A stretch of DNA of 64,000 bases from Escherichia phage vB_EcoM_Goslar. The stretch is taken from the sequence record NC_048170.1. One strand, given 5' to 3'. Of this stretch, positions 3,222 to 64,000 are shown piece by piece. The position numbers and the translations under genes are program-made. Under the pieces are notes generated by a model. The model worked only from the letters and a program-made list of their open reading frames with translations, had not been told where the DNA came from and ran no database searches. The stretch's first letter is position 1; every line of letters starts with the position of its first letter.

Positions 3222-3234
3222 ACGGCATAAAAAA
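3222..3234 (-). promoter_or_regulatory. TTTTTTATGCCGT box following a UUCG-loop hairpin
   Basis: minus-strand hairpin ccgatctggc-TTCG-gctggatcgg then TTTTTTATGCCGTCC, about 70 nt upstream of ATG at 3160. Confidence 0.4.
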
Positions 3235-3458
3235 GAACCGATCCAGCCGAAGCCAGATCGGTTAAAAAGGATAATAACTGACAGAAAGATATCGATGATG
3301 TTCGTGAAACAAGATCTTCTCTCGTGTACAATGATGCTAGATCAGAGGGAGGTTGTAACACGAGAGGTGGTTCGCCAAAGAAGGAATAAAAACACGAACC
3401 TATCTTATTTCACTGATGGCACTAACCACTCAAAATATATAGTACTGTATGTAAAAGT

Positions 3459-7269: not shown

Positions 7270-7280
7270 ACGGCATAAAA
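7270..7280 (-). promoter_or_regulatory. TTTTATGCCGT box following a UUCG-loop hairpin
   Basis: minus strand: agcctgtcc-TTCG-gggcaggct then TTTTATGCCGTG, 12 nt before ATG at 7257. Confidence 0.45.
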
Positions 7281-7310
7281 GCCTGCCCCGAAGGACAGGC
7301 TCGATAGAAC

Positions 7311-14398: not shown

Positions 14399-15643
14399 AT
14401 GCTCATGTCTTCTATTTTACAGGTGTTTAATGCGCATGCGGAAGGCATTGACATCGACGAGTATTTTGTTAATCAGGTTATCCGTTACGCGACACGCTTC
14501 CGTACGCAAGACCAAGAACACATGCGTTTTTTCGGTGGGGTTCTGTTAGGTGTACAGAAAATCCGATTCACAACAAGACATAACGATACATGGTTTTCAG
14601 ACGTCTTGATGATGGATGAAGAAAGCTTACGACGCGATTTGAGTAAACTACCCTTCTACAATACGCAGACCAACCGTGTTGCCTCAAACGCCTTTAACCT
14701 AAGTTGCTGTTGGTTGCTTTATGCGATCTTCCACAGCAAACAAATCAAAAAAGAAAAGGTTCGTGAAGCCGGGATGCTTGCAGCAATGCAAGTCCTCCAT
14801 TATAAATTCATTTGCGGTCTGGTAGCACGACGTTATCCTTATAACGCTGATCCGGCTATCGCTATTAAAGCGTACGATGAGTTAACCCTCAAATCAGGCA
14901 TCAAGCGCATGAATAGCTGGAATGAGTACATCGACGAACGCTGTAATGCCATCATTGCGCGTAATAGTACACATTTCAGTCGTTGGTCAACCCTGGAACC
15001 TGATAGCGTCGCCGAACGTTTTGTGCGTGATGTGAATACCGGAATCCGTAAGGTTATCAACCGTATCACCGATACGTACTACGCGATGTACGAAGAAGGT
15101 AAGAAGATAGGCACGTCTTCTCAAACTGTAGAGTTAGACGATGGTCTCGCTGTCCGCGATATTAAACGCAACGAAACCACTTATCGTCAATATCTGTTCG
15201 AAATCGCTTATGACCGAACGAGTTTCGTTAAACGCGAACTCATGGTCGTCATCCTTGACGTACACCATACTACCAATCTTTTATCCCTTGAGCGAGCGTT
15301 AAGCTATATCAGCGCTAACGTAGAACGACCGACAAGAGACGGAAAACAGGTCTCTCAGATGTTGCGGCTTGTAATGGAGCATGCTATCGAGTATATCATC
15401 TTGAATAAGGTCGATATGCGCGATCTTACGTTCTTATTCTACATGCGTAACGTGTACACGTCTAACCGCACTAGCAACCCGAAACTGTTAGAACTGCGTA
15501 AAATTGGCTCTGAAGTCATTAAGAAAGCAACCAATGCGAGAAATGACGCTGAGGCTGCGGCGACACGCACCGGTGTCTTTCTGTATATCCTGCTTCGTGT
15601 GTTTAGCCGTAACTATTACGTTCGACGTGCGATGTCACGTTAA
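14399..15643 (+). CDS. hypothetical protein
   Basis: 414-aa ORF. Confidence 0.55.
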   Translation: MLMSSILQVFNAHAEGIDIDEYFVNQVIRYATRFRTQDQEHMRFFGGVLLGVQKIRFTTRHNDTWFSDVLMMDEESLRRDLSKLPFYNTQTNRVASNAFNLSCCWLLYAIFHSKQIKKEKVREAGMLAAMQVLHYKFICGLVARRYPYNADPAIAIKAYDELTLKSGIKRMNSWNEYIDERCNAIIARNSTHFSRWSTLEPDSVAERFVRDVNTGIRKVINRITDTYYAMYEEGKKIGTSSQTVELDDGLAVRDIKRNETTYRQYLFEIAYDRTSFVKRELMVVILDVHHTTNLLSLERALSYISANVERPTRDGKQVSQMLRLVMEHAIEYIILNKVDMRDLTFLFYMRNVYTSNRTSNPKLLELRKIGSEVIKKATNARNDAEAAATRTGVFLYILLRVFSRNYYVRRAMSR

Positions 15644-15796
15644 CAATGTAACGGTAAAACTTTACTGACGTTGGTTATTATTTGAAGCATAGGGCTTCAC
15701 CCAGGAGTACCATCCCTTTAAGTCGTTTGTCCTCTCCTGGTTAACTGTCGTTCTCTCACAGTGCTCGACAGACCAAAAATGCTCAGGCCTCATAGC

Positions 15797-15825
15797 CTCC
15801 TCTGGGAATGGAACCCAGAGGAGGA
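15797..15825. terminator. bidirectional terminator hairpin
   Basis: cctcctctggg-aatggaa-cccagaggagg between convergent genes. Confidence 0.5.
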
Positions 15826-15836
15826 CTATGTTTGCC

Positions 15837-16157
15837 TTAAAATTCAATGCGACCTTTTGTCGTAAACAATACACCTCTTTGCCAACAGAAAAGATCCTCC
15901 GATTGAGCGCAAACACGAATACCCGCATCGAATAGATGTTTTGTTCTAGCGCTTAAACAATCAGGATCTTCTACATACAACAGAAGACGTTGGCATTTAT
16001 TTTGAATGCGTTCGACAAGGATGTTCTTATCGCTTAAAATAAAATGCGCGTTATCTGTTAAGTTATCGTCGGTTTCCAGCTGCTTGACAAGTTTGATTAA
16101 AATACGTAATTGCTCAAGTGTGTCATGATCAAGTGAATCACCCATGGCGTACCTCAA
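15837..16157 (-). CDS. hypothetical protein (probable start MGDSLDHD a few codons inside the ORF)
   Basis: 106-aa ORF; RBS GAGGT before internal ATG. Confidence 0.45.
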   Translation of the reverse strand: MRYAMGDSLDHDTLEQLRILIKLVKQLETDDNLTDNAHFILSDKNILVERIQNKCQRLLLYVEDPDCLSARTKHLFDAGIRVCAQSEDLFCWQRGVLFTTKGRIEF

Positions 16158-16230
16158 CGTTATACGTCGTTTGTATTATAATACGCTATCGTCTCCCCGC
16201 CTGTATTAACGGGGAGTCTGCAAACTACTC

Positions 16231-18462
16231 TTAGAAAAAACCGCCCGGACGGTATTGACCCATCGTCATCCACGCATTACGAGAAATATTCCGTTCATTC
16301 GAAGAGCGGCTTATTTGACGATAAGTATTCGCTCGTTCCTCCCTTGCTTTCGTGATCATCGCATCAATAGAAACAGCCGCTGAATCTTCCCCACGTATTT
16401 TTCCTTTATACGTAAGAAGCTCTGCCTCCAATCGATCCAAGATAAGGCCGTTGGTTTCGGTCTTAAGCAACTCATAGATTTCAGCAACGCGTTGACGAAG
16501 CTTCGCCTGCTGTTGGTTAAGATAAGCTTCATACGGATCGATTTCACCCGTCACAGATGCCGGTAAACGACTCATGACTTTAAGCGGATCGATACCATAA
16601 TGAATCTGTTTCTTAGCGCGCTTGATGAACCACATCGCTAACATCCAGGCGAACGTCATGTCGTCGTGCATTCCATCCTGGTGATCGACACGCCCATCTT
16701 TGATAACCAATCCAAGGATCTCGGAACACAACATCTTATCACGTAATTGCCCGCGGGTTTCTACAATACCTTCCATCAAGATGTCGGAATACAACTCCAT
16801 ACGTTTGCGTGCATCCGTTGTGAAGCCCAAATGCCGTTTACGTTGAGCATACCAACTTTCATCACGCATGCTCAATGGTAATTTCAGGTCTTCGAACATC
16901 GCTGGGTTATCAGCATGTCTGTCCACAATTGTGTTGTATACGCGTTTGAATACGTCGATGCCCGCTTGTCTCAGGAACTCTTCAATTGCGTCTAACAACA
17001 TGATTGCGCTGCTTTTACGTTCAGGAATCAACGTAACGTTCTTAAAACGCATCATGAAGTTGGCCATCCAACGAGCAAAAGAAAGCAAGCTCAGTTTATT
17101 AAAACGTCCTGTCGCAACAACTTCTGCTGTTTCTACATCCACCATCACCAAACCGATAGCGTCACGACCTATTGCATCGCTGGTGTCTAAACCAGCAACC
17201 ACCTTATTGTTCTGCATGTATGTCTCGATTTGACCTCGAGGTATATACCAGTTAATGCAGTAGCCTTCAGGTGAGATCTCGATGTGGTCGATTTCACGTT
17301 GTCCTGCCATGATCATCTCAACCATCTCAGCGGTTAACGGGCTTTCTGCTGAACCGTTGGTCCAGATGTTCATGTAGTCGCGGTCTTTCTGAAGTTTATC
17401 ACCTTCCGTTTCGTTCATGGTTTTTGCTAACCATTCATCACTGAATCCCAACTGAGCATGGTTCCATTGTGCCCCGATCCTGACGGTCGCTTTGCTGAGC
17501 TCGCACGGTACGTTGTTCAATACCGTCTGATGCAGATGCTTTTCGTTACGGCAGTCAAAGAAACTTTCAGAGAACGGCGCGGAACGCATGAAAACTTCAT
17601 AAGCCCATTTGCCTTCGCGTTTATCCAATTCACCTGCTGTTGTCGTATAGATGATACTTGTCAGGTCGCCGTTGCTTAATGCTTCATCGCGTGCCGCACC
17701 CATCGCACCGATACCAGCAGGAACAATAATTTCGATGTATTTCGTAAACGCGGTTTCGTCGCTATGGAATAGCGGGGTTGTTAGACCACGGCCGATGTTT
17801 GTTGCTTGTTTCTTATCCGAACGTGGAATCTTTACCGATAACTTGTTCTTGAAACGTGTGTAGGTTACGTTCTCTTTGTTCGATGAATCCCGACTATCCA
17901 GCGTCCAGAGATACGCAGGTAACAGATCGCGTATACTACGCACGTCTTCTACCGTTTTCGTACGGGCGTCACCGTCTTTTGTTAATTGAATAACCTCGGT
18001 GTTTCGACTACGAACATAGGTTAGATAACAGAACAGTCCTAACATGGTCATGGATTTACCGGTCTGACGTATCTGTATCTGATACCAGTTCGTTCGGGTA
18101 AATATCCCCCAGAGCATCGGAATGTTACCGCGGTTAGCACGGAATGAAATTTTGTTATCACCCGCTTTAGCCGGAACACGCATCACTTCACGGAAGAAGT
18201 ACCATGGATTAAGATAGCATTCCGCACTGATCATCTGAATCTGTTCTGACGTCAAATTCGGTGCGTGGGGATCAACACCAATCAATCTTGGGTTTAATAA
18301 CGCCATGAAAAACGCAGAGTTCCGGACACCGAATTCACGACGATACAAGATCGCTAAATCACGCCAACTTGTGTTTGTTGTTTCCCAGTGTGGAACAGCC
18401 TGAGGAAAATAATCCCAATCTTCCTCAAACAGGATGATTTTCTTCGGATCGACAATCGACAT
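16231..18462 (-). CDS. terL: terminase large subunit
   Basis: Walker A IRQTGKSMT, Walker B/catalytic FHSDETAF, coupling motif IIYTTTAGE; RBS GGAGG. Confidence 0.8.
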   Translation of the reverse strand: MSIVDPKKIILFEEDWDYFPQAVPHWETTNTSWRDLAILYRREFGVRNSAFFMALLNPRLIGVDPHAPNLTSEQIQMISAECYLNPWYFFREVMRVPAKAGDNKISFRANRGNIPMLWGIFTRTNWYQIQIRQTGKSMTMLGLFCYLTYVRSRNTEVIQLTKDGDARTKTVEDVRSIRDLLPAYLWTLDSRDSSNKENVTYTRFKNKLSVKIPRSDKKQATNIGRGLTTPLFHSDETAFTKYIEIIVPAGIGAMGAARDEALSNGDLTSIIYTTTAGELDKREGKWAYEVFMRSAPFSESFFDCRNEKHLHQTVLNNVPCELSKATVRIGAQWNHAQLGFSDEWLAKTMNETEGDKLQKDRDYMNIWTNGSAESPLTAEMVEMIMAGQREIDHIEISPEGYCINWYIPRGQIETYMQNNKVVAGLDTSDAIGRDAIGLVMVDVETAEVVATGRFNKLSLLSFARWMANFMMRFKNVTLIPERKSSAIMLLDAIEEFLRQAGIDVFKRVYNTIVDRHADNPAMFEDLKLPLSMRDESWYAQRKRHLGFTTDARKRMELYSDILMEGIVETRGQLRDKMLCSEILGLVIKDGRVDHQDGMHDDMTFAWMLAMWFIKRAKKQIHYGIDPLKVMSRLPASVTGEIDPYEAYLNQQQAKLRQRVAEIYELLKTETNGLILDRLEAELLTYKGKIRGEDSAAVSIDAMITKAREERANTYRQISRSSNERNISRNAWMTMGQYRPGGFF

Positions 18463-18474
18463 ATAAACTCCTCC

Positions 18475-18501
18475 GATGGAGGGTGCCGGGCACCCTCCAT
18501 C
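18475..18501 (-). promoter_or_regulatory. hairpin abutting terminase RBS
   Basis: gatggagggtgcc/ggcaccctccatc inverted repeat ends 1 nt before GGAGG RBS of terL; also 3' of upstream gene. Confidence 0.45.
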
Positions 18502-18512
18502 GTTGTATTACC

Positions 18513-20252
18513 TTATGCGACTTTACTAATAACGACTGCAGTGATACCAAGATGTAGGTCGACGCCATTCTGTACTTTAATCCAGCGGATATACAGGTTA
18601 GCGTTATCCTGTCCCGTACCACCTGGGACGTTATTGTTCCTATTCCATTGCGAGATTTCGAAACGTTTCTGCACGTTAGGACCAACCATGATTTCAAAGT
18701 GAGTCGGTTCTGGTGCTTTCGATTCCGTCTTCTCAAGATAGAGTGGATGTGTCGGGTAGTAAAGTTGGTTCAACCATTCACCCAGATCTGAGTGTTTGTT
18801 CGTCAAGTCAACATACGCGTTACCAGCAACATCGTAAGTAAACAACGCTTTCGTGTTACGACCGTACACATCCGTTGTCGTCGGTGTTGTTTGCGAGCTG
18901 AACGTTACTGTCCAGTAATCACCGGATGTCGCCGAACCTGCTTGCAGTAACGTCATTCGAATAGTCTGCGTATGACGTACGCGTTTGTAAACAGTAGGAT
19001 CGACTTCATCTAACCAGATGTTGTACGCAAATTCCTGAGGTTGTCCGTATTTCTTCGGATTAAACTCAGGGCTGTTCAGCGCCAATTGTACTTTATCGGT
19101 TACGTTGTAGTATCGTTCACGGTCAACGTTGTACAACCAGAACACCAGCTCGTATCCCACCGCATCAGATACCCATTGTGGATAGCAGAACAGTTTAACA
19201 CTGTATGCCCCTTTCGCTTCTTTAGAAACGACGGTATAAGGTACGCTGATGTGTTTCACTGCGCCAGGTAACGCGTAGGATGTGTCCTCATCATCGTCCA
19301 GGTAGTAGTGTAACGCCAGCGGGTGTTTGCTGTTGATAACCTGGGACGTGAAGACGTTAAGGCCATCCAACACAACCTTGTTGCCAGTAACCGGCCAATG
19401 TTTAATGGATCCGTCGCTGTAGGTGACTTCAGCTTGAAGGTCAACGGAATCCAGGTTGACGTTGATCGGCAACTCAAGCAGTTTGGTATCGCTGCTGTTC
19501 AGCCACGTTGATTTCAGTCGTACCCCGTCTTCCAGAATATATTTAATACCCTGGTCTGGTGTGCGTACATAGTCGGTGATACGAACGATCATACGTTTCA
19601 TGGATAGCGGCTGTGGACCATCGCCATAACCTACCACCATCACCTGCTCAAAATCTTCGACGGGCTTAATGCAGTAACCTTCGCGGGGTGCCCAGATAGC
19701 TTTATTCGTTCCGTCTTTGTAAGCGATAAGCTGACACGGAATAAAGTCACTGATCTTATTCCCACTGTTGTCATACATCGCACTGATGATTTCGCCTTTG
19801 GCGCTGATATCAGAACCACGGAACACGGCGATACGTCGAATATCCGAACCATGCAGATGGAAACGGCGATCGATATTCATCGTAGCAGGGATCGTGTTCG
19901 TATTAATCAATACGCGCCATGTATCGTACGACCATGTCGGATCAATACCCTCAAAGGTTGTCGTCCCATCGTCCTGACCATCGAACGGAGCAGAAAGCTG
20001 ACCGATAAGTTTAAGGGTACTTAGTTTAGTGCGATCGTCTACGGCGATAACACGATATACTGCGTTGGTATCCCAGTCTTCAACTTTATCGTCCACGTTG
20101 GGAACGTAAAGTTTCCAGTCTTCTTCAACGCCATTATAGATCTCTTTATACGCATAGGTGGTATAGCGTCTGTCGAGATCCTGAATAGCGAGTTTATCCG
20201 GATGCTGTTGTGCATAAAGCACCGGATTGGTAATCTCTCTTCCCATTATCAC
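18513..20252 (-). CDS. putative virion structural protein
   Basis: 579-aa ORF, 4-nt overlap with upstream 864-aa ORF; between terminase and tail genes. Confidence 0.45.
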   Translation of the reverse strand: MIMGREITNPVLYAQQHPDKLAIQDLDRRYTTYAYKEIYNGVEEDWKLYVPNVDDKVEDWDTNAVYRVIAVDDRTKLSTLKLIGQLSAPFDGQDDGTTTFEGIDPTWSYDTWRVLINTNTIPATMNIDRRFHLHGSDIRRIAVFRGSDISAKGEIISAMYDNSGNKISDFIPCQLIAYKDGTNKAIWAPREGYCIKPVEDFEQVMVVGYGDGPQPLSMKRMIVRITDYVRTPDQGIKYILEDGVRLKSTWLNSSDTKLLELPINVNLDSVDLQAEVTYSDGSIKHWPVTGNKVVLDGLNVFTSQVINSKHPLALHYYLDDDEDTSYALPGAVKHISVPYTVVSKEAKGAYSVKLFCYPQWVSDAVGYELVFWLYNVDRERYYNVTDKVQLALNSPEFNPKKYGQPQEFAYNIWLDEVDPTVYKRVRHTQTIRMTLLQAGSATSGDYWTVTFSSQTTPTTTDVYGRNTKALFTYDVAGNAYVDLTNKHSDLGEWLNQLYYPTHPLYLEKTESKAPEPTHFEIMVGPNVQKRFEISQWNRNNNVPGGTGQDNANLYIRWIKVQNGVDLHLGITAVVISKVA

Positions 20253-22843
20253 TCACCTTTGATTGTGTAAAACTTCGTGAAGTCCACGCGATCTTTCAAG
20301 AACTCACGACTGACACGTTCTAAGAACCGCAGTTGTTTAACCGTAACTTCGAGCGGCGTCCAACTGTCATGTGGATGAATAGAAACCATACGCCAATCGT
20401 AATTACATAACGCAGGATCGTAGTCATAGAACCATTTATACGGCTCCATGAAATCCATCAGTTTAACGTCCTGCATATCAGGATCGGGATCGATAACACC
20501 ATTGATAAGATCGTACGTTACGGCCATCAGCGTTGGACTGATAAGCTGGTATTTGTTTTCAATCGTTACCGGCGTATCGTACTTCACACGAGGGAAATAC
20601 AAGGACATATAGTCTTCAACGCGTTTATCGGTTTCAAGACTTTTGTCGCGTAGATAATACGTGTCTGTGTTCACGAGACCACGGATAGGGGCAATAACGT
20701 GGTAGATCGCATAAGGCACCCCATCGTTGACTTTGATGTCGGCAGGGTATTGCGTGTCCTCAGCTGTAACCACTTCGCTACGATCGTAAATACGTCCACC
20801 AACCACAATACGAACAACATGATCGTCACGAACATTAAACACATCGTCGTAAGAAAGCTGGTTATGCATCGTCCAACCGGTATCGTAAACGGTTTCACCG
20901 GTTAAGTCCGTACGTGGAAAACCAGTACATCTCACGGTAACCGTGTGCGTGTTCCCTTCACCGAAATACCGTTTCGCGTTGATCACGATCGTTGGCCATT
21001 TTACGATATAATCGATATCGCGTACCAAGCTGTAGCTTTTGGTTGCTTGCTCGTCACCTAACCATACTTCGATTTGACCGGGTTCGAAAGGCAGCGGATA
21101 TTCAACATCAATACCCGTCGTAACATCCAACCATACAGTGTGATTACGATGTTGTATCGTGGTCTTATACGCTAAGAAGTAGGTGTCGAACAATACTAAA
21201 CCGGTTTGCTTTCTTCCATCCAGCGACCATTTTATTACCCCGTTCTCTTCCGTTACCACAGAAGCATCGTCGGTAACATCCTTCCAGGTGTTCGCAACAG
21301 GTTGTCCGTTACGAAGGTTTACGCTATAACAGCGGTAACTCGCCCATTCACGGATTGGGACGTCGGCAACACCCATTACGTAATCAAGCGTTCTCCCACC
21401 AACACCCGATCGACCCTCAACATAGGACGTGGTTTCATATTGCGGATAAAAATGTCGGCCCGCCGGATGTTGCGTGATACCCAATAATAGACCGTCACTG
21501 TCGTACTCAAAGAACGTCGCATTTGCACGCAATCCCCATGGTACTTCAGCAGTAGGTGTACCCATATCGTCAGTAACGCGTTGTGGGCTATCTGCAACCA
21601 GTTTTGCCATCGCGTTATACCCGTAAGCGGAGGTCACCATGTCGATCGTGATATTGCTTTCCTTATTACGCATGATGCGCGTATAATCACTGGCTTCAAG
21701 GGTACGTGCAAAGAACTCAGGTATATTAGCGTTCTGTTCTAACATTGCACCGACGATGACGTCGTCTGGAAGTTTATACAATTCGTGGATGCGGTTATGT
21801 TCGAAGGTTAACTGCGTTTTCAGCCCACTATCGCGGACAACCACTTCCAGGGTTAAATCACGAAGCGATTCTGCTCCATCAACCCGTTCAACGAAGTAGC
21901 TGACATAATCAACAGGAATCCCGTAATCACGATGCGTGAGCATGCGGATACTATTTTCCTGGTTGGTGTGGTAATAACGCCCTTTTCCGTTAGGCCCTTT
22001 CACGTAGATATCAACGTCATCACGATACCGGATTTTAGTATCCGCTTCATCTTTCGGCGGATGAATAAGATACTTCACTTTTTTGTCCAGATCGCTGTTG
22101 TATGTTTTAAGATCTTCTACACGGAAACTATAACGATGAACAACTGTGCCATCATAGATGACCTGAATGCTATCGCCGATCTTAAAACTTGACGGTGGGA
22201 TGTCTTCAACCGCTTCACCATTGATGCTACAGTGCGTCCAACCGATCCCGGTTTCTTGGATCTTTTTACGCCAAGCGTATAGCTGACGCTGCCACTGTAG
22301 AACCTGCGTTGAACTGGTTACAATCCCGCCAAGGACATGCACCTCGCGTCCCGTCGGTTTCGTGTATGACGGATAGCCTTCCGCGAAGTCAGCATTGAGA
22401 TAGGTGCGCCAGTAATAATTGCCAACGCCAAGGTCAGCGATATTCGGTTGGTCGAGCACACAGACCAGCATCGTTTCGTTTTCCAGATTACCCGTCCACG
22501 TTAATGTCAACGGGAATTCTTTACCGTCCTCGGTATAGATATTGTAATACGATCCCTTCACTTCACAGAACTTGCTGAGTTCTCGCCACCATAACCGCCC
22601 AGCCCCGACATTAAAATCCTCCCCCATATGTCGTCCAATAACAAACACATGGAACGTATTCGTATCGTCAGGAAGATTGAATGTACGATGCCAAGCCGTA
22701 AAGTTTTTTACTGCGCCGGTCTTTCCGGTAATACGACGCATCTTGATACGATGCTGGTTGTCCATTAATGGACGGCAGTTCACATTCAGCGCAGCATGAT
22801 TTATCAAGTATTGCGCTGTAGGATTAGAAGCGTTCAACACCAC
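20249..22843 (-). CDS. large putative virion structural protein
   Basis: 864-aa ORF in structural region. Confidence 0.45.
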   Translation of the reverse strand: MVLNASNPTAQYLINHAALNVNCRPLMDNQHRIKMRRITGKTGAVKNFTAWHRTFNLPDDTNTFHVFVIGRHMGEDFNVGAGRLWWRELSKFCEVKGSYYNIYTEDGKEFPLTLTWTGNLENETMLVCVLDQPNIADLGVGNYYWRTYLNADFAEGYPSYTKPTGREVHVLGGIVTSSTQVLQWQRQLYAWRKKIQETGIGWTHCSINGEAVEDIPPSSFKIGDSIQVIYDGTVVHRYSFRVEDLKTYNSDLDKKVKYLIHPPKDEADTKIRYRDDVDIYVKGPNGKGRYYHTNQENSIRMLTHRDYGIPVDYVSYFVERVDGAESLRDLTLEVVVRDSGLKTQLTFEHNRIHELYKLPDDVIVGAMLEQNANIPEFFARTLEASDYTRIMRNKESNITIDMVTSAYGYNAMAKLVADSPQRVTDDMGTPTAEVPWGLRANATFFEYDSDGLLLGITQHPAGRHFYPQYETTSYVEGRSGVGGRTLDYVMGVADVPIREWASYRCYSVNLRNGQPVANTWKDVTDDASVVTEENGVIKWSLDGRKQTGLVLFDTYFLAYKTTIQHRNHTVWLDVTTGIDVEYPLPFEPGQIEVWLGDEQATKSYSLVRDIDYIVKWPTIVINAKRYFGEGNTHTVTVRCTGFPRTDLTGETVYDTGWTMHNQLSYDDVFNVRDDHVVRIVVGGRIYDRSEVVTAEDTQYPADIKVNDGVPYAIYHVIAPIRGLVNTDTYYLRDKSLETDKRVEDYMSLYFPRVKYDTPVTIENKYQLISPTLMAVTYDLINGVIDPDPDMQDVKLMDFMEPYKWFYDYDPALCNYDWRMVSIHPHDSWTPLEVTVKQLRFLERVSREFLKDRVDFTKFYTIKGE

Positions 22844-23771
22844 GGCATGCCTCCAGGAGGTATTTCATGTTGGCTTGGAAATCATTGACATCACGCGCCA
22901 TACGACGCTGATCTGCCATGAGACGAGCCAACACGGTATCACGGTAACCACGATCGTGGTCAGCAGCAGAGCATAAAAGAATAAATGTTGGTGGGTGCTC
23001 TAAAGCAATCCCGGCAACTTCTTTACTATAACCCCCAACCCAACTGTAAGCGGTGATTTCAAACAACAACGCCTGGGTTAACGTGTTCAAACGGGGACTG
23101 ATATTACTTTCTTTTAACGCTGTTACAAAAGCTGCCATGTTAGGGATGTAACCCAGGTTTTCGGTTGCGATACCGATGCTCGCAAAATCGTAACGAAGCG
23201 TTGTCTGGATGGTGCGCACCATAGTTAGTCTTTCATTATTTGTAAGGCTATCTTTAAACAAGCAAAGATAATACCATGCTGTTATGATGGCAACATCACG
23301 ACGTTGTTGAAGGTCCAACCCTAAACGCTGTGTGATTTGTCCGCTAATCCAATCACAAAAGACACGCATCGGGATAGGGCCAAGACGTTCAAAAGGGCGT
23401 GTGCCCAAGGATTCCCATCCTACCTGAAGATACGCACGTGATTGAAGAAAGTTATATTCACGTTCGTTAACAACGGTAGTACGCGATCCTGGGCGTGAAG
23501 TGTCTGTTGGGGTGCGTGCGTAAGCGCGTTGGTCGATAACAACGCGCTGTCCGTCCATCACTGTTTTAATGACCAGCGGATGGCCGAAAGAAGGGATATC
23601 GTCCAACGTATTTTTGTTGCCGATGACTTCGAGAACGGGAGTGTTTACGCCACTTTCTTCACCGGGTGCACTTAACAATCCGCCGACGTAAGCAACTTCG
23701 ATAGCGGTTCGGATACGGTCAATGCCTTTTAGTTTTGTTCCAACAGTTGTGTCGTAAGGAGAGATGAACAT
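22824..23771 (-). CDS. hypothetical protein
   Basis: 315-aa ORF; RBS AAGGA. Confidence 0.5.
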   Translation of the reverse strand: MFISPYDTTVGTKLKGIDRIRTAIEVAYVGGLLSAPGEESGVNTPVLEVIGNKNTLDDIPSFGHPLVIKTVMDGQRVVIDQRAYARTPTDTSRPGSRTTVVNEREYNFLQSRAYLQVGWESLGTRPFERLGPIPMRVFCDWISGQITQRLGLDLQQRRDVAIITAWYYLCLFKDSLTNNERLTMVRTIQTTLRYDFASIGIATENLGYIPNMAAFVTALKESNISPRLNTLTQALLFEITAYSWVGGYSKEVAGIALEHPPTFILLCSAADHDRGYRDTVLARLMADQRRMARDVNDFQANMKYLLEACRGVERF

Positions 23772-23787
23772 ATGTAATTCCTTTATT

Positions 23788-23799
23788 ACGGCATATAAG
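23788..23799 (-). promoter_or_regulatory. TATATGCCGTAAT box (variant of TTTATGCCGT)
   Basis: 17 nt upstream of ATG at 23771. Confidence 0.35.
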
Positions 23800-23914
23800 A
23801 AAACGGGTTAAGCACACAGATTTACGCATAATTGTAATATTTTACGTTATGCCTATGACATTGTGTCACGTGTGCAATTATGTCATACAATTTCCTTAAA
23901 TTAAGGAGAGTTCC

Positions 23915-25987
23915 ATGAGGCTTAAGAATAGCACGCCTCGCGCGATTTTTACGGGCTTTAAAGAGGGTCTTACCACGGATCCGGTTACAGCCCCAGAGAT
24001 CACGCCCATTCACCTCCCGTATGTTTTCATTCAGGGTGGTCGTGGTAAAGAGGACACCTTGCTGTTAACAGGGGACGCCCTGTCTACAGTCTACGGTGAA
24101 GATATGCTGAACTACCGCAGTAAGTACGCTTCTCCAGCAACACTGATTGCTCGTCAGGCTGCTTCTACAGGTAGCGCGATCTTCACAAAACGTTTGGTTG
24201 CGCCGGATGCAACGGCAGCACGCATCCGTATCGGTGTTGAAGTGGTCGCCGATAAACTGGTCGTTTACCAGCGTAACGCTGACGGGTCCTTTGTGAAGGA
24301 CACGCTCGGCAACAAAATCCCTGACGGCGATAAAACCGTTGACGGGTTGAAAATGCGTTGGGTTGTTAACCACGACAAAGATGCCGAAACACCTAATGCT
24401 TTCGGTAAAGATGAAGTGGTTCTCGGACAACTGACTGCAACTGGTGGTGCCCAGAGCAACTACTATCCTATTCTGGATGGATTGGTGAGCTGGCGTGGTG
24501 CTGAAGGGGACAACATCGGCATACGTCTGGAAGCACCGACCGCGCTGAGCAGTAACCCTACCCGTACCGATATTATCGAACGTATCGGTGCTTTCCTGTA
24601 CCGCATTCAGTTCGTGGAACGCAAGTCTTCACGTACTGCGCCGACGGTCATTCGTACGATCAGCGGTATGGAACAAGAAACCTTCGCGTTGCAGGAAGGT
24701 GTTATCCAGCCTGATGACGAAACCGATCTGTCCTTCGGTAAAGTGGTCGTTGACGCCTACGAGTATAATGAGACGGGTAATACCCCGATCTTTGCTCCGA
24801 TGGATCAGATGCATCTTTATCAGAAGAACATCGATGACGTCGTCAAGATGCTGTACGAATCTGAACGCAAAGTTAACAACGATCTGTTAACCGACGTTGA
24901 ATTCGTCGAAGGCCAGATGAACATCTTCACCGGTGTTGATTACAACGGCATCCCGTATCAAACCATCGAAGTTCTCGATGCGGATCAGGGCGGTGCTATC
25001 TTCGACGGTACCAGCACCTTCTACGCGATCGATGGTAGTGACGGTGACGTAAACTGGGATACCTTCGATGCGTTAGCGAAGCAGCAGTTCGAATCGTTCG
25101 GCAACATGGGCGAAGATCTGGAAGACATGGCTTTCTATCCGTTCTCCATCGTGTATGACATTGGTTACAAAGTCGACACGAAGAAAGCGATGGCAAACGT
25201 CTTGTCTCTGCGTCCGGATGTCATGATCATTGCGTCAACCCATACCTGGAAGGGTGTGGAACTGAATGTCGATGAAGAAAGCTCCATGGGCGCAATGCTG
25301 CGTAACTACTACCGTCTGCATCCAGAAAGCGTGCTTTACAATACCCCAGCTTGCCGTGCTGCTGTATTCATGCAATACGGTGAAAGCATCGAAGCGCCAA
25401 GCCTGGGTAAAGTTCCGTTGACGCTGGAAGTTGCTAATAAACTCGCAACTTACATGGGTGCTTCGGATGGTGTTATCCGCGGTACTCGCATCGATAACAA
25501 CCCTGGTAACGTTGTCACAACGATGCGTAAAATCAACAAGACGTATCGTAACGCAACGGTCCGCGATCGTGATTGGGAAAACGGCTTGAACTATGTTCAG
25601 ACCTACAACCGTAATTCCAACTTCTTCCCGGCTTGGGGCACGATCTACAATAACGACCGTTCGGTATGGCGTTCGTTGATCAACGTGATCATCGGTTGCG
25701 ATCTGACGCGTGTCTGCTATCGTCTCTGGGCAGAAACCACCGGTACTACAGGAATGGATGAAACGCTGTTCCTGAAACTGATGGGTGAACGCTTCCTGGA
25801 ATACACCACGGGTCGTTACAACGACCACGTGACTGTTAAGGGACGTTTCTACCTGGATAAAGAAGACGGCTATAACGGCTTCAGCTATCACGGCGATATC
25901 AGCCTGATCGGCGATCCAGGCATGACCGTGGGTACGTTTACCATCACCGGGCTGCGTCGTAACACCGAAGCAGCAGAAGCGGCGTAA
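23915..25987 (+). CDS. major virion structural protein, probably tail sheath
   Basis: 690 aa, strong RBS AAGGAGAG, highly biased codon usage, immediately followed by a 296-aa gene; size/synteny argument only. Confidence 0.5.
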   Translation: MRLKNSTPRAIFTGFKEGLTTDPVTAPEITPIHLPYVFIQGGRGKEDTLLLTGDALSTVYGEDMLNYRSKYASPATLIARQAASTGSAIFTKRLVAPDATAARIRIGVEVVADKLVVYQRNADGSFVKDTLGNKIPDGDKTVDGLKMRWVVNHDKDAETPNAFGKDEVVLGQLTATGGAQSNYYPILDGLVSWRGAEGDNIGIRLEAPTALSSNPTRTDIIERIGAFLYRIQFVERKSSRTAPTVIRTISGMEQETFALQEGVIQPDDETDLSFGKVVVDAYEYNETGNTPIFAPMDQMHLYQKNIDDVVKMLYESERKVNNDLLTDVEFVEGQMNIFTGVDYNGIPYQTIEVLDADQGGAIFDGTSTFYAIDGSDGDVNWDTFDALAKQQFESFGNMGEDLEDMAFYPFSIVYDIGYKVDTKKAMANVLSLRPDVMIIASTHTWKGVELNVDEESSMGAMLRNYYRLHPESVLYNTPACRAAVFMQYGESIEAPSLGKVPLTLEVANKLATYMGASDGVIRGTRIDNNPGNVVTTMRKINKTYRNATVRDRDWENGLNYVQTYNRNSNFFPAWGTIYNNDRSVWRSLINVIIGCDLTRVCYRLWAETTGTTGMDETLFLKLMGERFLEYTTGRYNDHVTVKGRFYLDKEDGYNGFSYHGDISLIGDPGMTVGTFTITGLRRNTEAAEAA

Positions 25988-26893: not shown

Positions 26894-26918
26894 CGTAAAA
26901 AAAAAAAAGCATATTAAC

Positions 26919-26958
26919 CTCCCTTCCTTCCCTAGCCGTCAAGGCCGGGGAAGGAAGG
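26919..26958. terminator. bidirectional terminator hairpin
   Basis: ccttccttccc...gggaaggaagg; T-rich on plus side, T12 run on minus side (26897-26908). Confidence 0.55.
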
Positions 26959-26970
26959 TTTATGGTTTAT

Positions 26971-29442: not shown

Positions 29443-29531
29443 CTTTTTAAATTCCTACTTAACAATAAAGTTCATATACGGCGTATGTATCCGTAGAATA
29501 ATGGGTTCTGGTAAGATCTTACATCAAAATG

Positions 29532-29543
29532 ACGGCATAAAAA
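29532..29543 (-). promoter_or_regulatory. TTTTTATGCCGT box following hairpin
   Basis: minus strand: acctccttaccc-acat-gggtaaggaggt then ACTTTTTATGCCGTCA, about 90 nt upstream of ATG at 29442. Confidence 0.4.
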
Positions 29544-29725
29544 GTACCTCCTTACCCATGTGGGTAAGGAGGTTCGTCCATCACGACGAAAGGACGTTAT
29601 GTGACGCGGTGTCCATAACGGCCCTGGTAGCAGGCATTAAAGATAACAAAAAGGATGTAAGTTGAGCTAAACCACCTAAATACGGTAACGATTACTTCCG
29701 TACACAATATAACGCAACATCTTTT

Positions 29726-33916: not shown

Positions 33917-36900
33917 TTATTTGGCGTCGTTAAAATAAATATCAACAGCTCGTTCCGTTGCGTAGAGGAGACCAAGATTCACAGTCCCAACCACTTCCGG
34001 TGAACCGATGATACGGTTAGCGATACTGGTGCCACTGAAGATAGCATCAAGGGTGTGCCCGTCTTCGGTTTTGTTCACACCATGACCCACGGAAGAGACA
34101 ACGGATTTCGCTTGTGCTGCGAAGGTACCTTTATCACCCATCCCCGCACCAAGGTCGTAACGCATGAAAATACGGATGGCGATCTGGTTCTCGCCTAACG
34201 GATTACCGTCTATTCTTACGTTACTGTTGTTGATACGCCCCGTTGTTGCTTCGTTGAGTTTCAGTTCCTTAACGCGTTTAGCTCGTGCTTTATCCGCATC
34301 GCCGACGAGCGCTGCCATGGTTTCACTCATATCCTCAATCTGAGCGCGGTACAATACATCGATCTGTACAACTTCACCATGAACGTCAGCACGTGGGTTA
34401 TACTGACTCATACGCCGTAATGCTTCAACGGCTTCCTGACTCTCATCACTCAGATCGGTCGCAATCGGTTCTTCCAGTGTTGCAAGGATCGTTCGTGGTT
34501 CAACATGATCGCCGATTTTCACGAGACCACGAATGTTGAGATGGGCGTCAACGATGAGTGTACGACTCTTAATCGATGGTGTTACGAGACGATCGGCAAG
34601 ATTGTCGAAGATATACGAACTGTCCTCGTGCGTCTCTGGAATATCCAGAATACCGACAAGAGACAGAACACCTGCGCGCCAAACAACCTGACCTGGGTTC
34701 CACCAATCGCGTTTAAAATAAAGACGATGGAAAACCACCACATCCTGATCCTTAACGCGATCCCCGACTTTATAATCGGTAATGAGATCGTGAGGATAAT
34801 ACTTACCTGGTCCTTTCCCGATTATCGTGCCGAGTTGGAAAACCTCTTCTCCTAACTCTGGATCGTCGTATTGTATCGTAAGCGCAGTTTTGGTGACCTT
34901 CTTAACAACACCATCGCCTTGGGCAGCTGCTGCGAAGAGTTTACCAACACGATGCGCGATGACTGTCTCGCCACCCGTACGCCATGGTTGTACATCGTAA
35001 CCTTCAGCAGCAATCATGCGGTTGTGTTGGATTCCGACAAAAACCAGACGTTTTCCATCGTCACGGTCTACAGCCGGAACAGCTAACGCCGACGTACTCA
35101 TTACCGATGAGATACCATCTGTCTTTTCATCGAATGGTCGTGTTTCACCATACACCGACACGATATTAGCATTAGGTGCAAGGTAAGCAGAGATACCCAC
35201 ATCCCCACTATCTTTCGTACCCTCTGACACAATACCAACATCAGACTTGTCGTATTCACGATCGCGTGCGCGTCGAAGCGATGTCTTTGAACGACCTCCG
35301 ATACCGGTCATCGTTGCTTCTTCACCTTGCTTGATATCCAGCATTGGGTTGGTTTCATCAATGACGATAGAAGCACTGTCGTCAAGGATTTGGTTCCAAA
35401 CGCTCACCGGACTGATTGAGATCTTCTGTCGGTTGCCTTGGCTGCTGTTCTCATTCTGACGAATAGCGCCAACCAGGTCCTTATACACCAATTCAGCGAA
35501 CTTATCGTACGTTTTAAAACGTTGGTAGTTCACATCGTTCGTGTTAGGTGCCCAATCATCCAGAAGCAGTTCAACAGCACGCAGTAGCAACATGGCGAAA
35601 TCAGTAGGTTCTCCCATGTTCTGTAATAGCGTACGGCTTACCGGATCAACGAAAAGACGCTCCATGAGTTCAAGTTCGCGTAAATGGCGAACCTTAAGTC
35701 CAGCACCATCGACAACGTTAAAATAGATATCACGATTGTCAAAAGCGCCGCGAGCGTAACCGATGTAGTTACGGTACTCGTTAAACCCACCCAGCAACAA
35801 CGTCGTCATGCGATCGTCTTTACTGAAAATCAAACTTTCATCGTCAAAGCTCACCGCGAATTCATCTGCTGCTAACCCCATACGAGAACCACGAGGTACC
35901 GTACGATAGTTTGCTTTAAGATGTTCTAATAACGGGGTAAGTCCGCCCAGATAACTTAGAACAACGCCAACCGGAATACGTACACCCATGAATTCAAGAT
36001 CGGCGGCTTCGATCGGCATCTTAGCCGCATTGATACCGAAGAAATCAGGGAACGTCCCTACAGGTGTTGGTGTTTGTCCTGACTGACAGATATAGAGCTG
36101 ATTGCGTTCATCGATCGCTAGGAACTCACCCGATGTGTTACGTGCGAACGTCAGGAGTCCTTCGGCTAACTGTTCGTTGAACCGATCTTCCCCAATGAAC
36201 TCCGGCAATGTTTTTATATCGAGACGTATATCCCAATCAGCAAATTGGATTTGGGTATAGTTGCGTGCAAGCACAGCGAAGTAATACGGGACTTTGACAG
36301 CCGGATCAAAGACGTTACCACGTTTTAACGTTGTTAAGGGTGAGGACTTATCGTAATACATCGCCGTAAGTTGACGTGTTAGCCAACGACCGGCGTTATT
36401 AACGACGCGCTCTGAACGTTTAACAAACACCTTACCGTAGGCGGTACTTAATGCAACTTCGGATGATGATACCTTTCTAATAGGTTTATCAACACGTTGT
36501 TTACGCATCCGGTACTTGATGCCGTTAACAACATAAATGCCATCCTTACGAACCTTCGGCAACATCACCGGGAACGTGGTTGGGACACCGCCTACAGGGG
36601 CCAGTTTAATCGTGATGACTTGATAATCCCCCATCACGTCAACAACATCTTCGACTTTATATCCCGTAACAGGGTAACCTGCTTGCTGTACCGCAACAAC
36701 GGCAGCTGCGATGTCCTTTTGCATTACATGCTCAACGTAATGTTTATCCCACACCGCAAGCGTCGATTTACATAGGCTCTTATCGACGATAACATCCGCT
36801 TCCGGCATAACCTTTGCGGGAGCTAATTTTGCGGCTTTTGGTTTAACTTCAACATACTCGGCAAGCGTGAGTCCAGAACCGTCGGGCGCTTCGATTTCAT

Positions 36901-38263
36901 GAATAGCGTCGGCATTACGCATCGCTGCTTTATATTGGACGCCGCTTAACTGACCCGCATCCGCCAGATCGCTCGCGCGCACCAACACCGCATCCGATAA
37001 CGACTGAATATATTCACCGTGCGTTTTTGGTAACGTTGCCGCGTCAAAGACATCAACCTTTTCTTCTTCGGTATCGTCGGTAACGACTTCGAAGAGATCG
37101 TCGGTAATGTCCTGATCTTCATCGGGTTGGAAATCTGGTTGTACTTCTACCCCGGGTACTTCACGGACATCTTCGAACGCGCGTTCTACAATGGCGTTCC
37201 ACGCATCAGCGTCATCGTCTTCATCCGACCCACCGACCAACTCCGCTTCTAACTCGTCGGGGTCAAGAACAGTGGCCAGATCCTCCCCGTTAGGAAGCAT
37301 GACGTCACGATCATCGTACTCCGCATCCGGGCTGTCCGCAAGAATATCTCGCTCTTGACGAAGAACCTGTTCCTCTTCTTGTTTCTGTTCTTCTTCATTC
37401 GCACTCTGCGACCACAGACGTGTTACCGCCATCATCCAACGACGCTGGAAGGTTTCAAGTGTCGTTTTATCGAGTTCTTCCCCTTCCTTTACAAGTCCGG
37501 TACGCCATTCTTCCAGTAGACCAAGATTCAGCGTAAAGAAGTACACACCGTCTGTAAATACAACGTTAAGCTTATCCAGCGTGGCTCTGTCTAACGAAGC
37601 CATCGTGCTGTTCTCACGATCGACGCCCAGCCAGCGGAAGAAGTCAAAGAACGACAGCTCCTCCGGCGTGGCGAAATTCATGAGGTTGTTACGGGTCGGT
37701 GCCTGTTGCGTGGTACGCATCAACGAAATCTTCGGCAATGTTGACGGTATACGGAACAACAAAAAGTGTTGACGATCGCTTTGCTGTGCGATTTCGTTGG
37801 CTTTCGACCAAATTGTTTTACGCACGTTGAACCATTCATCATACCAACGGGTGAGCGTTGGACGATAGATGTACATGTGGTTAAGATGTGCGTAGTTAGC
37901 AACGATCTGAGCGTTGATGTTTTTCTCCACCGTACTTAGATCGGTAACCAAACGAAAACGACGATGCGATGCACGATAATCCAATTTCGCTCGTGGAAGT
38001 TGGAATCGTTGATCGCGTCGAGGTGCACCCTGTTTGGTTGCGAGATCATCAGCAAACGAAATCCATAGTTGAGCACTTTCTTTACTCAGCATGTATTCGT
38101 TTTCTGGAGGACCTATCAATGAAGGATCCGTTGCGGTGTAATGATAGACAGCATAACGCGGCAGCTGCAATAGCTGCACTAAACGTAATCTCGGTGACAA
38201 TAGCTCTTGGTAGCGTCTGACACCAAACTGTCGGTAGTAATCAAGGTATTTAAGTTTTGCCAT
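33917..38263 (-). CDS. multisubunit RNA polymerase beta-like subunit
   Basis: NPMLDIKQGEEATMTGIGGRSKTSLRRARD...SEGTKDSGDVGISAYLAPNANI resembles beta NPLSEITHKRR..GPGGLTRERAG..ETPEGPNIGLI; GDKGTF...GHGVNKTEDGHTLDAIFSGTSI resembles GDKMAGRHGNKGV block; RBS GGAG. Confidence 0.55.
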   Translation of the reverse strand: MAKLKYLDYYRQFGVRRYQELLSPRLRLVQLLQLPRYAVYHYTATDPSLIGPPENEYMLSKESAQLWISFADDLATKQGAPRRDQRFQLPRAKLDYRASHRRFRLVTDLSTVEKNINAQIVANYAHLNHMYIYRPTLTRWYDEWFNVRKTIWSKANEIAQQSDRQHFLLFRIPSTLPKISLMRTTQQAPTRNNLMNFATPEELSFFDFFRWLGVDRENSTMASLDRATLDKLNVVFTDGVYFFTLNLGLLEEWRTGLVKEGEELDKTTLETFQRRWMMAVTRLWSQSANEEEQKQEEEQVLRQERDILADSPDAEYDDRDVMLPNGEDLATVLDPDELEAELVGGSDEDDDADAWNAIVERAFEDVREVPGVEVQPDFQPDEDQDITDDLFEVVTDDTEEEKVDVFDAATLPKTHGEYIQSLSDAVLVRASDLADAGQLSGVQYKAAMRNADAIHEIEAPDGSGLTLAEYVEVKPKAAKLAPAKVMPEADVIVDKSLCKSTLAVWDKHYVEHVMQKDIAAAVVAVQQAGYPVTGYKVEDVVDVMGDYQVITIKLAPVGGVPTTFPVMLPKVRKDGIYVVNGIKYRMRKQRVDKPIRKVSSSEVALSTAYGKVFVKRSERVVNNAGRWLTRQLTAMYYDKSSPLTTLKRGNVFDPAVKVPYYFAVLARNYTQIQFADWDIRLDIKTLPEFIGEDRFNEQLAEGLLTFARNTSGEFLAIDERNQLYICQSGQTPTPVGTFPDFFGINAAKMPIEAADLEFMGVRIPVGVVLSYLGGLTPLLEHLKANYRTVPRGSRMGLAADEFAVSFDDESLIFSKDDRMTTLLLGGFNEYRNYIGYARGAFDNRDIYFNVVDGAGLKVRHLRELELMERLFVDPVSRTLLQNMGEPTDFAMLLLRAVELLLDDWAPNTNDVNYQRFKTYDKFAELVYKDLVGAIRQNENSSQGNRQKISISPVSVWNQILDDSASIVIDETNPMLDIKQGEEATMTGIGGRSKTSLRRARDREYDKSDVGIVSEGTKDSGDVGISAYLAPNANIVSVYGETRPFDEKTDGISSVMSTSALAVPAVDRDDGKRLVFVGIQHNRMIAAEGYDVQPWRTGGETVIAHRVGKLFAAAAQGDGVVKKVTKTALTIQYDDPELGEEVFQLGTIIGKGPGKYYPHDLITDYKVGDRVKDQDVVVFHRLYFKRDWWNPGQVVWRAGVLSLVGILDIPETHEDSSYIFDNLADRLVTPSIKSRTLIVDAHLNIRGLVKIGDHVEPRTILATLEEPIATDLSDESQEAVEALRRMSQYNPRADVHGEVVQIDVLYRAQIEDMSETMAALVGDADKARAKRVKELKLNEATTGRINNSNVRIDGNPLGENQIAIRIFMRYDLGAGMGDKGTFAAQAKSVVSSVGHGVNKTEDGHTLDAIFSGTSIANRIIGSPEVVGTVNLGLLYATERAVDIYFNDAK

Positions 38264-40440: not shown

Positions 40441-40490
40441 TTTAAAAGTTAAATTTGCCAGAAAACTGGCATTTTGTTAGCCTTTCCTTG

Positions 40491-41957: not shown

Positions 41958-42202
41958 GGAGACACTCCTCTTTACCACCACCGGCTGCGGCGGTATCATC
42001 TGAACACACGAGAGACGTAATGGGTGATGGCGTCACCCATCGCTTCCTTGCTTGAGGCGAGGAAGTTATTAGGTTACGTACCTGCGTGATAAAATCAAGC
42101 AGGCGATGTGTGAAGTTACGCTTCAACATTATCAATGCCGAAGGTAAACTTCGTGCATCACGTTCCAACGTAACATGGGAACGTATCGAACTGGAGGTAT
42201 AC

Positions 42203-52182: not shown

Positions 52183-52210
52183 CACGTCCTCCTGAAAAAG
52201 AAAAAAGAAA

Positions 52211-52220
52211 TACGGCATAA
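52211..52220 (-). promoter_or_regulatory. TTTATGCCGT box following hairpin
   Basis: minus strand agcctacccac-cattgt-gtgggtaggct then TTTATGCCGTAT, 29 nt upstream of ATG at 52182. Confidence 0.45.
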
Positions 52221-52264
52221 AGCCTACCCACACAATGGTGGGTAGGCTAAGATCAACATCGATG

Positions 52265-63938: not shown

Positions 63939-63980
63939 CCCTCCTCCTTCCCTGATGGGTTGGAGGAGGGTTATGCCGTC
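63939..63980 (+). promoter_or_regulatory. hairpin followed by TTATGCCGTC box
   Basis: ccctcctcc-ttccc-tgat-gggtt-ggaggaggg then TTATGCCGTCAAGC then A16. Confidence 0.4.
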
Positions 63981-64000
63981 AAGCAAAAAAAAAAAAAAAA

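Follow-up and report, generated by a model that had tools for sequence, protein, structure and literature searches.

Which function can be assigned to a long palindrome that separates a virion structural gene from the terminase gene behind it? The question arises in Escherichia phage vB_EcoM_Goslar, of which we analysed a stretch of 64,000 nucleotides from record NC_048170.1 (the window). On its minus strand a palindrome lies between a gp26-like virion structural gene and terL, the gene of the terminase large subunit, and reaches the Shine-Dalgarno (SD) sequence of terL. A first-pass annotation had suggested that this hairpin, as the 3' structure of the upstream gene, allows terminator read-through to deliver terL and limits the access of ribosomes, which would keep terminase stoichiometry low. 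We found that the palindrome clearly acts as RNA and that its position behind the gp26 stop codon is conserved among phiKZ-like phages. On balance it is probably a leaky terminator or a 3'-end protector which steps expression down from virion proteins to TerL.

A stable hairpin at the gp26-terL junction

The minus-strand junction is TAA(18515-18513)-GGTAATACAA-CGATGGAGGGTGC-CCG-GCACCCTCCATCG-GAGGAGTTTAT-ATG(18462), and stop codon, stem and SD region read TAA-ggtaatacaa-CGATGGAGGGTGC-ccg-GCACCCTCCATCG-gaggagtttatATG (Table 1). A repeat finder reported a perfect palindrome of 14+1+14 nt at 18474-18502, its arms (18474-18487 and 18489-18502) flanking one central base. In RNA of the coding (minus) strand it folds into a 13-bp stem with 9 G-C pairs and a 3-nt loop, which begins 10 nt past the TAA of the gp26-like gene. 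The hairpin by itself has a predicted stability of -24.7 kcal/mol. Folded within 91 nt of sequence it reaches -33.3 kcal/mol (z = -4.0), and none of 200 shuffled sequences was equally stable. The window has two perfect inverted repeats whose arms measure at least 13 nt and whose loop is at most 8 nt, whereas 200 simulations by a composition-matched first-order Markov model gave none. The palindrome is not due to chance. Rfam covariance models gave no match at E <= 1 within 15500-24200.

The first-pass annotation had placed a hairpin with 13-nt arms 1 nt before the GGAGG of terL. The hairpin is present as described and the quoted arms (18501-18489 and 18487-18475) are correct, but the distance is wrong, as these arms contact GGAGG directly with a gap of 0 nt. 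An extra pair, C18502-G18474, lengthens the palindrome further, and the last G of the stem is also the first G of the SD, an overlap of 1 nt. The two flanking genes had been recognized correctly (Table 1).

The stem is under selection as RNA

Sequence variation around the junction was examined in 19 distinct strains of the same clade (90-98% DNA identity) over 1.2 kb. In this region 48% of third-codon positions are polymorphic. None of the 24 positions of the lower 12-bp stem varies, for which the probability is about 1e-7 at the flanking third-codon rate, whereas all 3 loop positions do, with the alleles CCG, CGG, TCG, TCA, CTA and CAA. In the 3' arm only the top pair varies, by G>A in two strains. 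The 14 positions from the SD through the ATG are likewise invariant.

A sister clade (12 loci; TerL 67% identical) carries CGGGAGGCTGGC-TGAAAG-GCCGGTCTCCCG, placed as far from the stop codon as the hairpin of the window. When the two clades were aligned in register, the 10 shared pairs were all paired in 6/6 alleles; four pairs have both of their bases exchanged, and at one pair G-C, G·U and A-U all occur. On the hairpin-only alignment covariation scored 0.444 as compared to 0.215 for shuffled alignments (0/500 reached 0.444), and slid registers scored far lower. With whole-junction RNAalifold the consensus fold was uninformative, MAFFT having set the 3' arms of the two clades out of register. 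Within the sister clade all substitutions fall in the stem and keep pairing via G·U, and its stem is worth -25.1 kcal/mol on the mRNA strand versus -14.8 kcal/mol on the opposite strand. In the window clade the palindrome is perfect and both strands fold equally. Compensatory or G·U changes, together with selection on the stem and not on the loop, are the pattern of a conserved structured RNA, and the element clearly functions as RNA. A metagenome scan added only near-identical strains, with no intermediates between 67% and 99% TerL identity.

The position of the hairpin is conserved in phiKZ-like relatives

We examined 50 loci in which terL is preceded by a gp26 ortholog at a distance of at most 400 nt. 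All 50 of these syntenic junctions contain a strong hairpin, with stabilities from -12 to -43 kcal/mol, and in 49 of them it starts within about 16 nt of the gp26-ortholog stop codon. The stem sequences are unrelated among the 50 relatives and the position is kept. The proposal of a 3' structure that belongs to the upstream structural gene is thus borne out, phiKZ included. The phiKZ gp26/gp25 junction contains ATAAAGCCCCCTAGG-tggtt-CCTAGGGGGCTTTAT-aacgt, 3 nt past the gp26 stop. This hairpin matches the published phiKZ terminator motif, a stem-loop followed by TTAT(G/T)YYGT (PMC10914365); the full motif, BCCYCCCCHWWDGGGRRGGBYTTATKYYGT, comes from 61 mapped sites, terminators that are predicted to be intrinsic (Putzeys et al. 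2024, PMC10914365). Phage 201phi2-1 has a terminator motif similar to that of phiKZ, and just 52 of its 132 mapped 3' ends resemble intrinsic terminators (PMC11512511).

The distance from the hairpin to the terL start varies among relatives from about 3 to 180 nt, and the sister clade has 3 nt separating its hairpin from the SD. Because of this variation, the abutment on the ribosome-binding site (RBS) is, by this comparison, lineage-specific; what is conserved is where the hairpin lies relative to the stop codon, and not that it touches the SD. Junctions with a hairpin at most 30 nt from terL have stabler stems (mean -26 versus -16 kcal/mol) and fewer T residues in the tail, a difference to be read as a trend only, since not every stem was trimmed and not every start called perfectly, and since it is confounded by genome GC content.

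Hairpins of this gene-end class often have UUCG or GNRA tetraloops, which are RNA-specific stabilisers (junctions L001-L085; window 3236-3263 and 7279-7302). In the phiKZ gp26-gp25 intergenic region (L086, 5739-5877), a CCATATGAG site and another small hairpin lie between terminator and terL. This second hairpin (GCCGT-tcaat-ACGGC) has TTTATTATGG behind it, some 45 nt ahead of the start codon, and may be a terminator inside the 5' untranslated region (UTR), of the kind described for phiKZ.

The tail of the hairpin and the transcription of terL

At the gene ends of the window, hairpins are typically followed after 0-6 nt by TTATG, often as TTATGCCGT. The usual junction of two genes in the same direction consists of stop codon, GC hairpin, (T)TTATGCCGT, leader, SD and ATG (3222-3263, 7270-7302, 29532-29578, 52212-52243 and 63940-63979); where genes converge, the TATG behind the hairpins lacks the CCGT extension and has nothing downstream. 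The same association is seen in the relatives. Of 39 distinct junctions, 24 have a TATG at -6..+12 nt relative to the end of the hairpin, about 10-fold above the expected 5.6%, and TATGCCG stands between hairpin and terL SD in many relatives. At the terL junction of the window the tail is GAGGAGUUUAUAUG, of which the first 6 nt after the stem are purines (GAGGAG). Here and in the sister clade the SD takes the place of the TTATG tail, and TATG is shifted to +11..+14, where it forms the terL start codon.

The core of phiKZ late promoters is TATG, with its G as the +1 start of transcription (PMC4666361). The terminator tail TTATG and this promoter core overlap in sequence. Because the window encodes beta-type subunits of a phage multisubunit RNA polymerase (33917-38263 and 40449-41999), a phiKZ-type transcription system is a reasonable assumption for its phage. 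No TATG is present on the coding strand between hairpin and SD or for 337 nt upstream, the nearest being at 18812, and a TATG-initiated transcript that includes the terL SD should therefore have crossed the hairpin. The earlier suggestion that terL is delivered by read-through is thus most probably right. By analogy with phiKZ, we infer that TATGCCGT at 23788-23795 is the late promoter of a gp28-gp27-gp26-(hairpin)-terL operon; this sequence was seen 7 times against 2.25 expected. The phiKZ late promoter P119L has no upstream hairpin, and the idea that the hairpin is a component of a late promoter was dropped on this ground.

Three further observations concern hairpins and starts elsewhere in the window. 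In 52180-52243 (minus strand), the GTG (52233) that opens the longest reading frame of gene 51115-52233 lies within a terminator-type hairpin; the real start is probably ATG 52180, which has AGGAGG before it. At 29524-29553 (minus strand) a perfect 13-bp terminator-type hairpin has as its 3' arm a consensus SD (AAGGAGGT), located 7 nt before the ATG of TATGCCGT, and this ATG opens a mini open reading frame (ORF) of four codons, ATG CCG TCA TTT TGA. At the end of the window (63985-64000, plus strand) a run of 16 A residues directly follows a hairpin and TATGCCGTCAAGC.

Access of ribosomes to terL

The core of the terL SD is predicted to be exposed. In the context of -70..+40, the four bases of this GAGG core are unpaired with probabilities of 0.99, 0.98, 0.27 and 0.90. 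The stem takes up just the first G of the SD, and a sequestered SD can be rejected. Opening GAGG..AUG costs 4.3 kcal/mol, under the window average. Opening -20..+15 costs 29 kcal/mol, the highest value of 56 genes (mean 11.9 kcal/mol), so that terL would be the least accessible of these genes only if the 30S subunit must melt this whole interval.

The fold also contains a putative outer helix (Table 1), a weak one in which the terL AUG pairs with CAU of the upstream gene's GCA-UAA (last codon and stop); through it the AUG is predicted to be unpaired with a probability of only about 0.04-0.12. A similar helix, CAUAAG/UUUAUG, is predicted in the sister clade (L004). Covariation gave no support to the outer helix, whose existence we infer from folding. 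Taken together, the notion that the hairpin limits ribosome access draws little support, from the cost of -20..+15; the mostly unpaired GAGG, the low cost of GAGG..AUG and the lack of conservation of the flush contact speak against it. By these predictions a direct effect of the hairpin on terL translation is possible, and such an effect is not the conserved feature. If the phage forms a phiKZ-like nucleus, transcription and translation would be uncoupled and ribosomes would meet a fully folded stem.

Proposed role of the hairpin

We propose that the stem-loop marks the 3' end of the message of the gp26-like gene, and that it is the window phage's version of the terminator-type hairpin found after gp26 orthologs across phiKZ-like jumbo phages. 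In the lineage of the window the junction would have shrunk to 50 nt. The terL SD would thereby have come to lie flush with the stem, where other terminators bear TTATG(CCGT), and the TATG would have moved 8 nt downstream to provide the terL start codon. Transcripts would begin upstream, probably at TATGCCGT before the gp28-like gene, and most of them would end or be trimmed at the stem, which may act as a leaky terminator, as a block to 3'-to-5' exonucleases, or as both. These activities appear likeliest because there is no U-run or TTATG at the stem and no room for a separate promoter. A fraction of the transcripts would read through, and terL would be translated from the exposed GGAGG. The outcome would be a step down from structural proteins to TerL, with any direct effect on ribosome binding being secondary. 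The purine-rich tail GAGGAG is consistent with a designed leakiness, and the low terminase stoichiometry put forward in the first-pass annotation is a plausible consequence.

Several observations weigh against this proposal. With a 6-nt purine-rich tail, canonical intrinsic termination is expected to be weak, and termination and exonuclease protection look alike in sequence. The polarity of the arms, with a G-rich 5' arm, and the spacing of the tail do not conform to the strict phiKZ terminator motif. Compact junctions tend to have stronger stems without U-rich tails, a tendency that genome GC confounds. TATG is frequent (30 on the coding strand in 5.7 kb), so that internal promoters are possible, and the assignment of the operon promoter depends on the analogy with phiKZ.

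A natural deletion strain is a further such point. The 238-kb contig L090 (ERZ1643250 NODE-25) is 97.7% identical to the window over 7.25 kb, and its junction is ACAACGATGGAGG-AGTTTATATG, a clean loss of 24 nt between two GGAGG direct repeats (equivalent to window 18470-18498). This loss is the sole indel in the 7.25 kb and leaves the SD-to-ATG spacing intact. The deletion is probably a real allele because a 5-nt repeat cannot collapse a k-mer assembly, although it may instead be a library artefact. The existence of a strain without the hairpin suggests that the hairpin is modulatory and not essential.

Alternative explanations

The polymerase may not stop at the stem at all. As a purely post-transcriptional stabiliser, the stem would block 3'-to-5' exonucleases after cleavage downstream, and the structural message would outlive the terL segment. 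A very stable and strongly conserved stem in a junction that lacks a U-run and an adjacent TTATG would suit this idea, as would the generally stronger stems and fewer tail T residues of compact junctions and the limited share of intrinsic-like 3' ends in 201phi2-1. The positional ortholog in phiKZ, however, fits a motif of terminators that are predicted to be intrinsic, no cleavage site was identified, and sequence alone does not separate a stabiliser from leaky termination; we consider a pure stabiliser conceivable though rather unlikely. It is quite improbable that the stem serves as a translational throttle, the main idea of the first-pass annotation. In such a throttle the tall stem abutting the SD would leave no single-stranded standby platform and, aided by the outer helix on the AUG, would lower 30S binding and keep TerL scarce. 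The high cost of melting -20..+15 points in this direction, and so do the additional cost of about 9 kcal/mol for freeing 4 nt upstream of the SD beyond that of SD..AUG alone, an AUG predicted to be about 90% paired, and the invariance from SD through ATG. Against these stand the exposed SD core and the cheap opening of GAGG..AUG, the 3-nt gap of the sister clade and the wide range of hairpin-to-start distances in other relatives, where it is the position past the stop codon that is conserved and not the contact with the SD. A very improbable mechanism is a gate made of SD and anti-SD elements. The 3' arm contains CCCUCC, which mimics the anti-SD of 16S rRNA and would be held by the decoy GGAGG of the 5' arm; once the 5' arm is lost or opened, CCUCC could pair with the real SD and silence terL on truncated or decaying RNAs. 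RNA without the 5' arm is indeed predicted to fold as CCUCC-AUC-GGAGG at -7.2 kcal/mol, and the decoy-SD/anti-SD layout recurs in L004, L046 and L007/L008/L052. The layout is nevertheless not enriched near an RBS (6/21 vs 2/16, p = 0.42), arm polarity does not follow distance (rho = -0.02), and GGAG/CUCC is good stem material in an SD-rich genome and is used by other terminators of the window. Neither arm polarity nor this layout was retained as a mark of RBS-adjacent hairpins, as no association was found.

A DNA-level element beside terL, such as a palindromic protein-binding site, a cruciform or a pac signal, could be imagined from the perfect symmetry in the window clade, where both strands fold equally, and from the adjoining terminase gene. 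We give it hardly any credence. In the sister clade the G·U pairs become C·A mismatches on the other strand and break the symmetry that a site in double-stranded DNA would need; no recognition sequence is conserved, as the stems of relatives are unrelated despite their conserved position, the central bases vary freely, and similar hairpins occur at many other gene ends. Finally, the TTATG tail of phiKZ-type terminators may be identical with the TATG read by the phage RNA polymerase at late promoters, in which case hairpin and TATG(CCGT) would form a joint stop-and-restart module. At the terL junction the restart element would then have been swapped for an RBS, which would turn an insulated gene into a read-through-dependent one, and the anti-SD-like 3' arm might be an extra translational gate. 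Such a module is favored by TATGCCGT, which is found behind hairpins and also, with no hairpin, where the gp28 promoter is expected, by the roughly 10-fold excess of TATG behind junction hairpins, and by the TATG without CCGT at convergent gene ends. Because phiKZ P119L indicates that TATG promoters need no hairpin, the stop and restart functions appear to be separable and not obligatorily fused, and we regard the module as doubtful.

Neighbouring genes and occurrence of the phage

The genes gp28-like (22824-23771), gp27-like (20249-22843), gp26-like and terL follow each other on one strand, and a sheath gene diverges from them. The gp28-gp27-gp26-terL order is that of phiKZ, in which the gp26 ortholog PHIKZ026 is directly upstream of terL; a gp26 ortholog has this place in most relatives too. 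The TerL protein shares 37-41% identity with the TerLs of phiKZ-like jumbo phages. ATG 18462 is the sole usable terL start, there being an in-frame TAA upstream and no other start codon, and the N-terminus is the same in the relative with 67% identity. Two other uses of the junction were rejected. A 48-aa ORF from the ATG inside the 5' arm (18500) has no SD, and its ATG is missing in the sister clade. A bypass of the 50-nt gap in the manner of T4 gene 60 has no matching take-off and landing codons, with GCA before the stop codon and none after the stem. An HNH endonuclease gene (38931-40403, minus strand) lies between the two RNA polymerase subunit genes.

Table 1. Features of the gp26-terL junction and related elements in the window
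Feature	Position	Strand	Remarks
gp26-like virion structural gene	18513-20252	-	phrog_3430 at 6e-155; stop TAA 18515-18513
terL, 743 aa	16231-18462	-	phrog_2 at 4e-38; start ATG 18462-18460, within TTTATATG
Spacer GGTAATACAA, 10 nt, stop codon to stem	18503-18512	-	polymorphic at 2/10 positions in the 19 strains
Stem 5' arm CGATGGAGGGTGC	18490-18502	-	holds SD-like GGAGG, a direct repeat of the real SD
Loop, 3 nt	18487-18489	-	CCG in the window; 3/3 positions polymorphic among strains
Stem 3' arm GCACCCTCCATCG	18474-18486	-	holds anti-SD-like CCTCC (18482-18478); last G (18474) common to SD
terL SD GGAGG	18470-18474	-	followed by 7-nt spacer AGTTTAT
Predicted outer helix AGUCGCAUA (18522-18514) / UAUG-U-CGAUU (18463-18454)	18454-18522	-	minimum-free-energy fold and ensemble
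TATGCCGT without hairpin	23788-23795	-	21 nt upstream of gp28-like gene
Hairpins with TTATG-type tail	3263-3236, 7302-7279, 28005-27956, 29578-29531, 52243-52212, 51111-51074, 59337-59302, 63940-63979
Hairpins with TTATG-type tail on both strands	15787-15835, 26917-26966
Strong two-strand hairpin followed by TATG, between convergent genes	15787-15835		putative end of operon

The same phage, of roughly 235-247 kb, was found in draft isolate assemblies of E. coli, Salmonella enterica (Newport, Heidelberg and Muenchen) and Shigella flexneri (protein ids P0135-P0145) and also in human gut metagenomes. Near-identity searches of phage isolates, complete E. coli genomes and PLSDB plasmids gave no match. 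It seems to be an uncultivated phiKZ-like jumbo phage of enterobacteria, and it may persist with its hosts.

Comparison with known systems

The closest counterpart is the phiKZ-type terminator. Common to both are a GC-rich stem-loop on the transcribed strand, within a few to tens of nt past the stop codon of a late gene, the position between the gp26 ortholog and terL, a downstream TTAT(A)TG, and a phage-encoded multisubunit RNA polymerase. Other hairpins of the window fit the motif including its YYGT extension (TTATGCCGT). The terL-junction hairpin differs in that the motif has a C-rich 5' arm (CCYCCCC) and a G-rich 3' arm (GGGRRGG), whereas here the arms are reversed (CGATGGAGGGTGC / GCACCCTCCATCG), and the polarity of the motif is found only in the weak alternative CCUCC-AUC-GGAGG. 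In addition, the terL SD intervenes between the stem and TTAT..G, which starts 8 nt past the stem where the motif has about 2; in the tail GAGGAGTT-TATATGTCGA the G of TATG is at +14, compared to +4 to +10 in other class members of the window. In phiKZ 97 nt precede terL, whereas the window phage has no 5' UTR or separate promoter region there. Because arm polarity and tail spacing do not agree, the hairpin is outside the strict motif family; it is a local, compacted form of the phiKZ-type gene-end hairpin.

The post-gp26 hairpin is among the most positionally stable non-coding features of phiKZ-like phages, and lineages differ in how far it is from terL and in whether a restart promoter is present. 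Junctions of the compact and the expanded type, together with the one clean deletion strain, make up a natural series for studying how these phages, which transcribe with an RNA polymerase of their own, adjust the amount of virion proteins relative to terminase. The locus reveals no new mechanism; its worth is that of a well-documented, testable example and of a pointer to the overlap of TTATG and TATG.

With Rho-independent terminators the hairpin shares a stable, GC-rich 13-bp stem and a short loop right past the stop codon, both within the usual dimensions (5-14 bp and 3-8 nt). It differs from them on the mRNA strand, where 6 purines and not a U-tract follow the stem. A consensus scan for Rho-independent terminators did not call the mRNA-strand 13-bp stem and flagged only its plus-strand version and a 5-bp CCTCC/GGAGG mini-hairpin.

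Structure directly 5' of an SD can reduce 30S loading through standby-site effects, and in T4 gene e a hairpin sequesters the SD itself. The terL junction resembles these cases in having a structure immediately 5' of the SD and an anti-SD-like strand beside it. It differs in its unsequestered SD and in a flush arrangement that is not kept among relatives. Intercistronic stabiliser hairpins, such as the REP element in malE-malF and the stem-loops of the puf operon, give differential stability to the segments of one message. They too are stable stems behind the upstream cistron of an operon, the one needed in larger amounts; no common sequence family links them to the window hairpin.

In phage T7, T-phi behind the capsid gene 10 is a partial terminator across which the downstream genes are expressed. 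As proposed for the terL junction, the hairpin follows a structural gene whose product is needed in abundance, and downstream late genes, among them those for packaging, would depend on read-through at a lower level. The polymerase is of another type, T-phi possesses a U-run, and its read-through has been measured, whereas that of the window hairpin is deduced.

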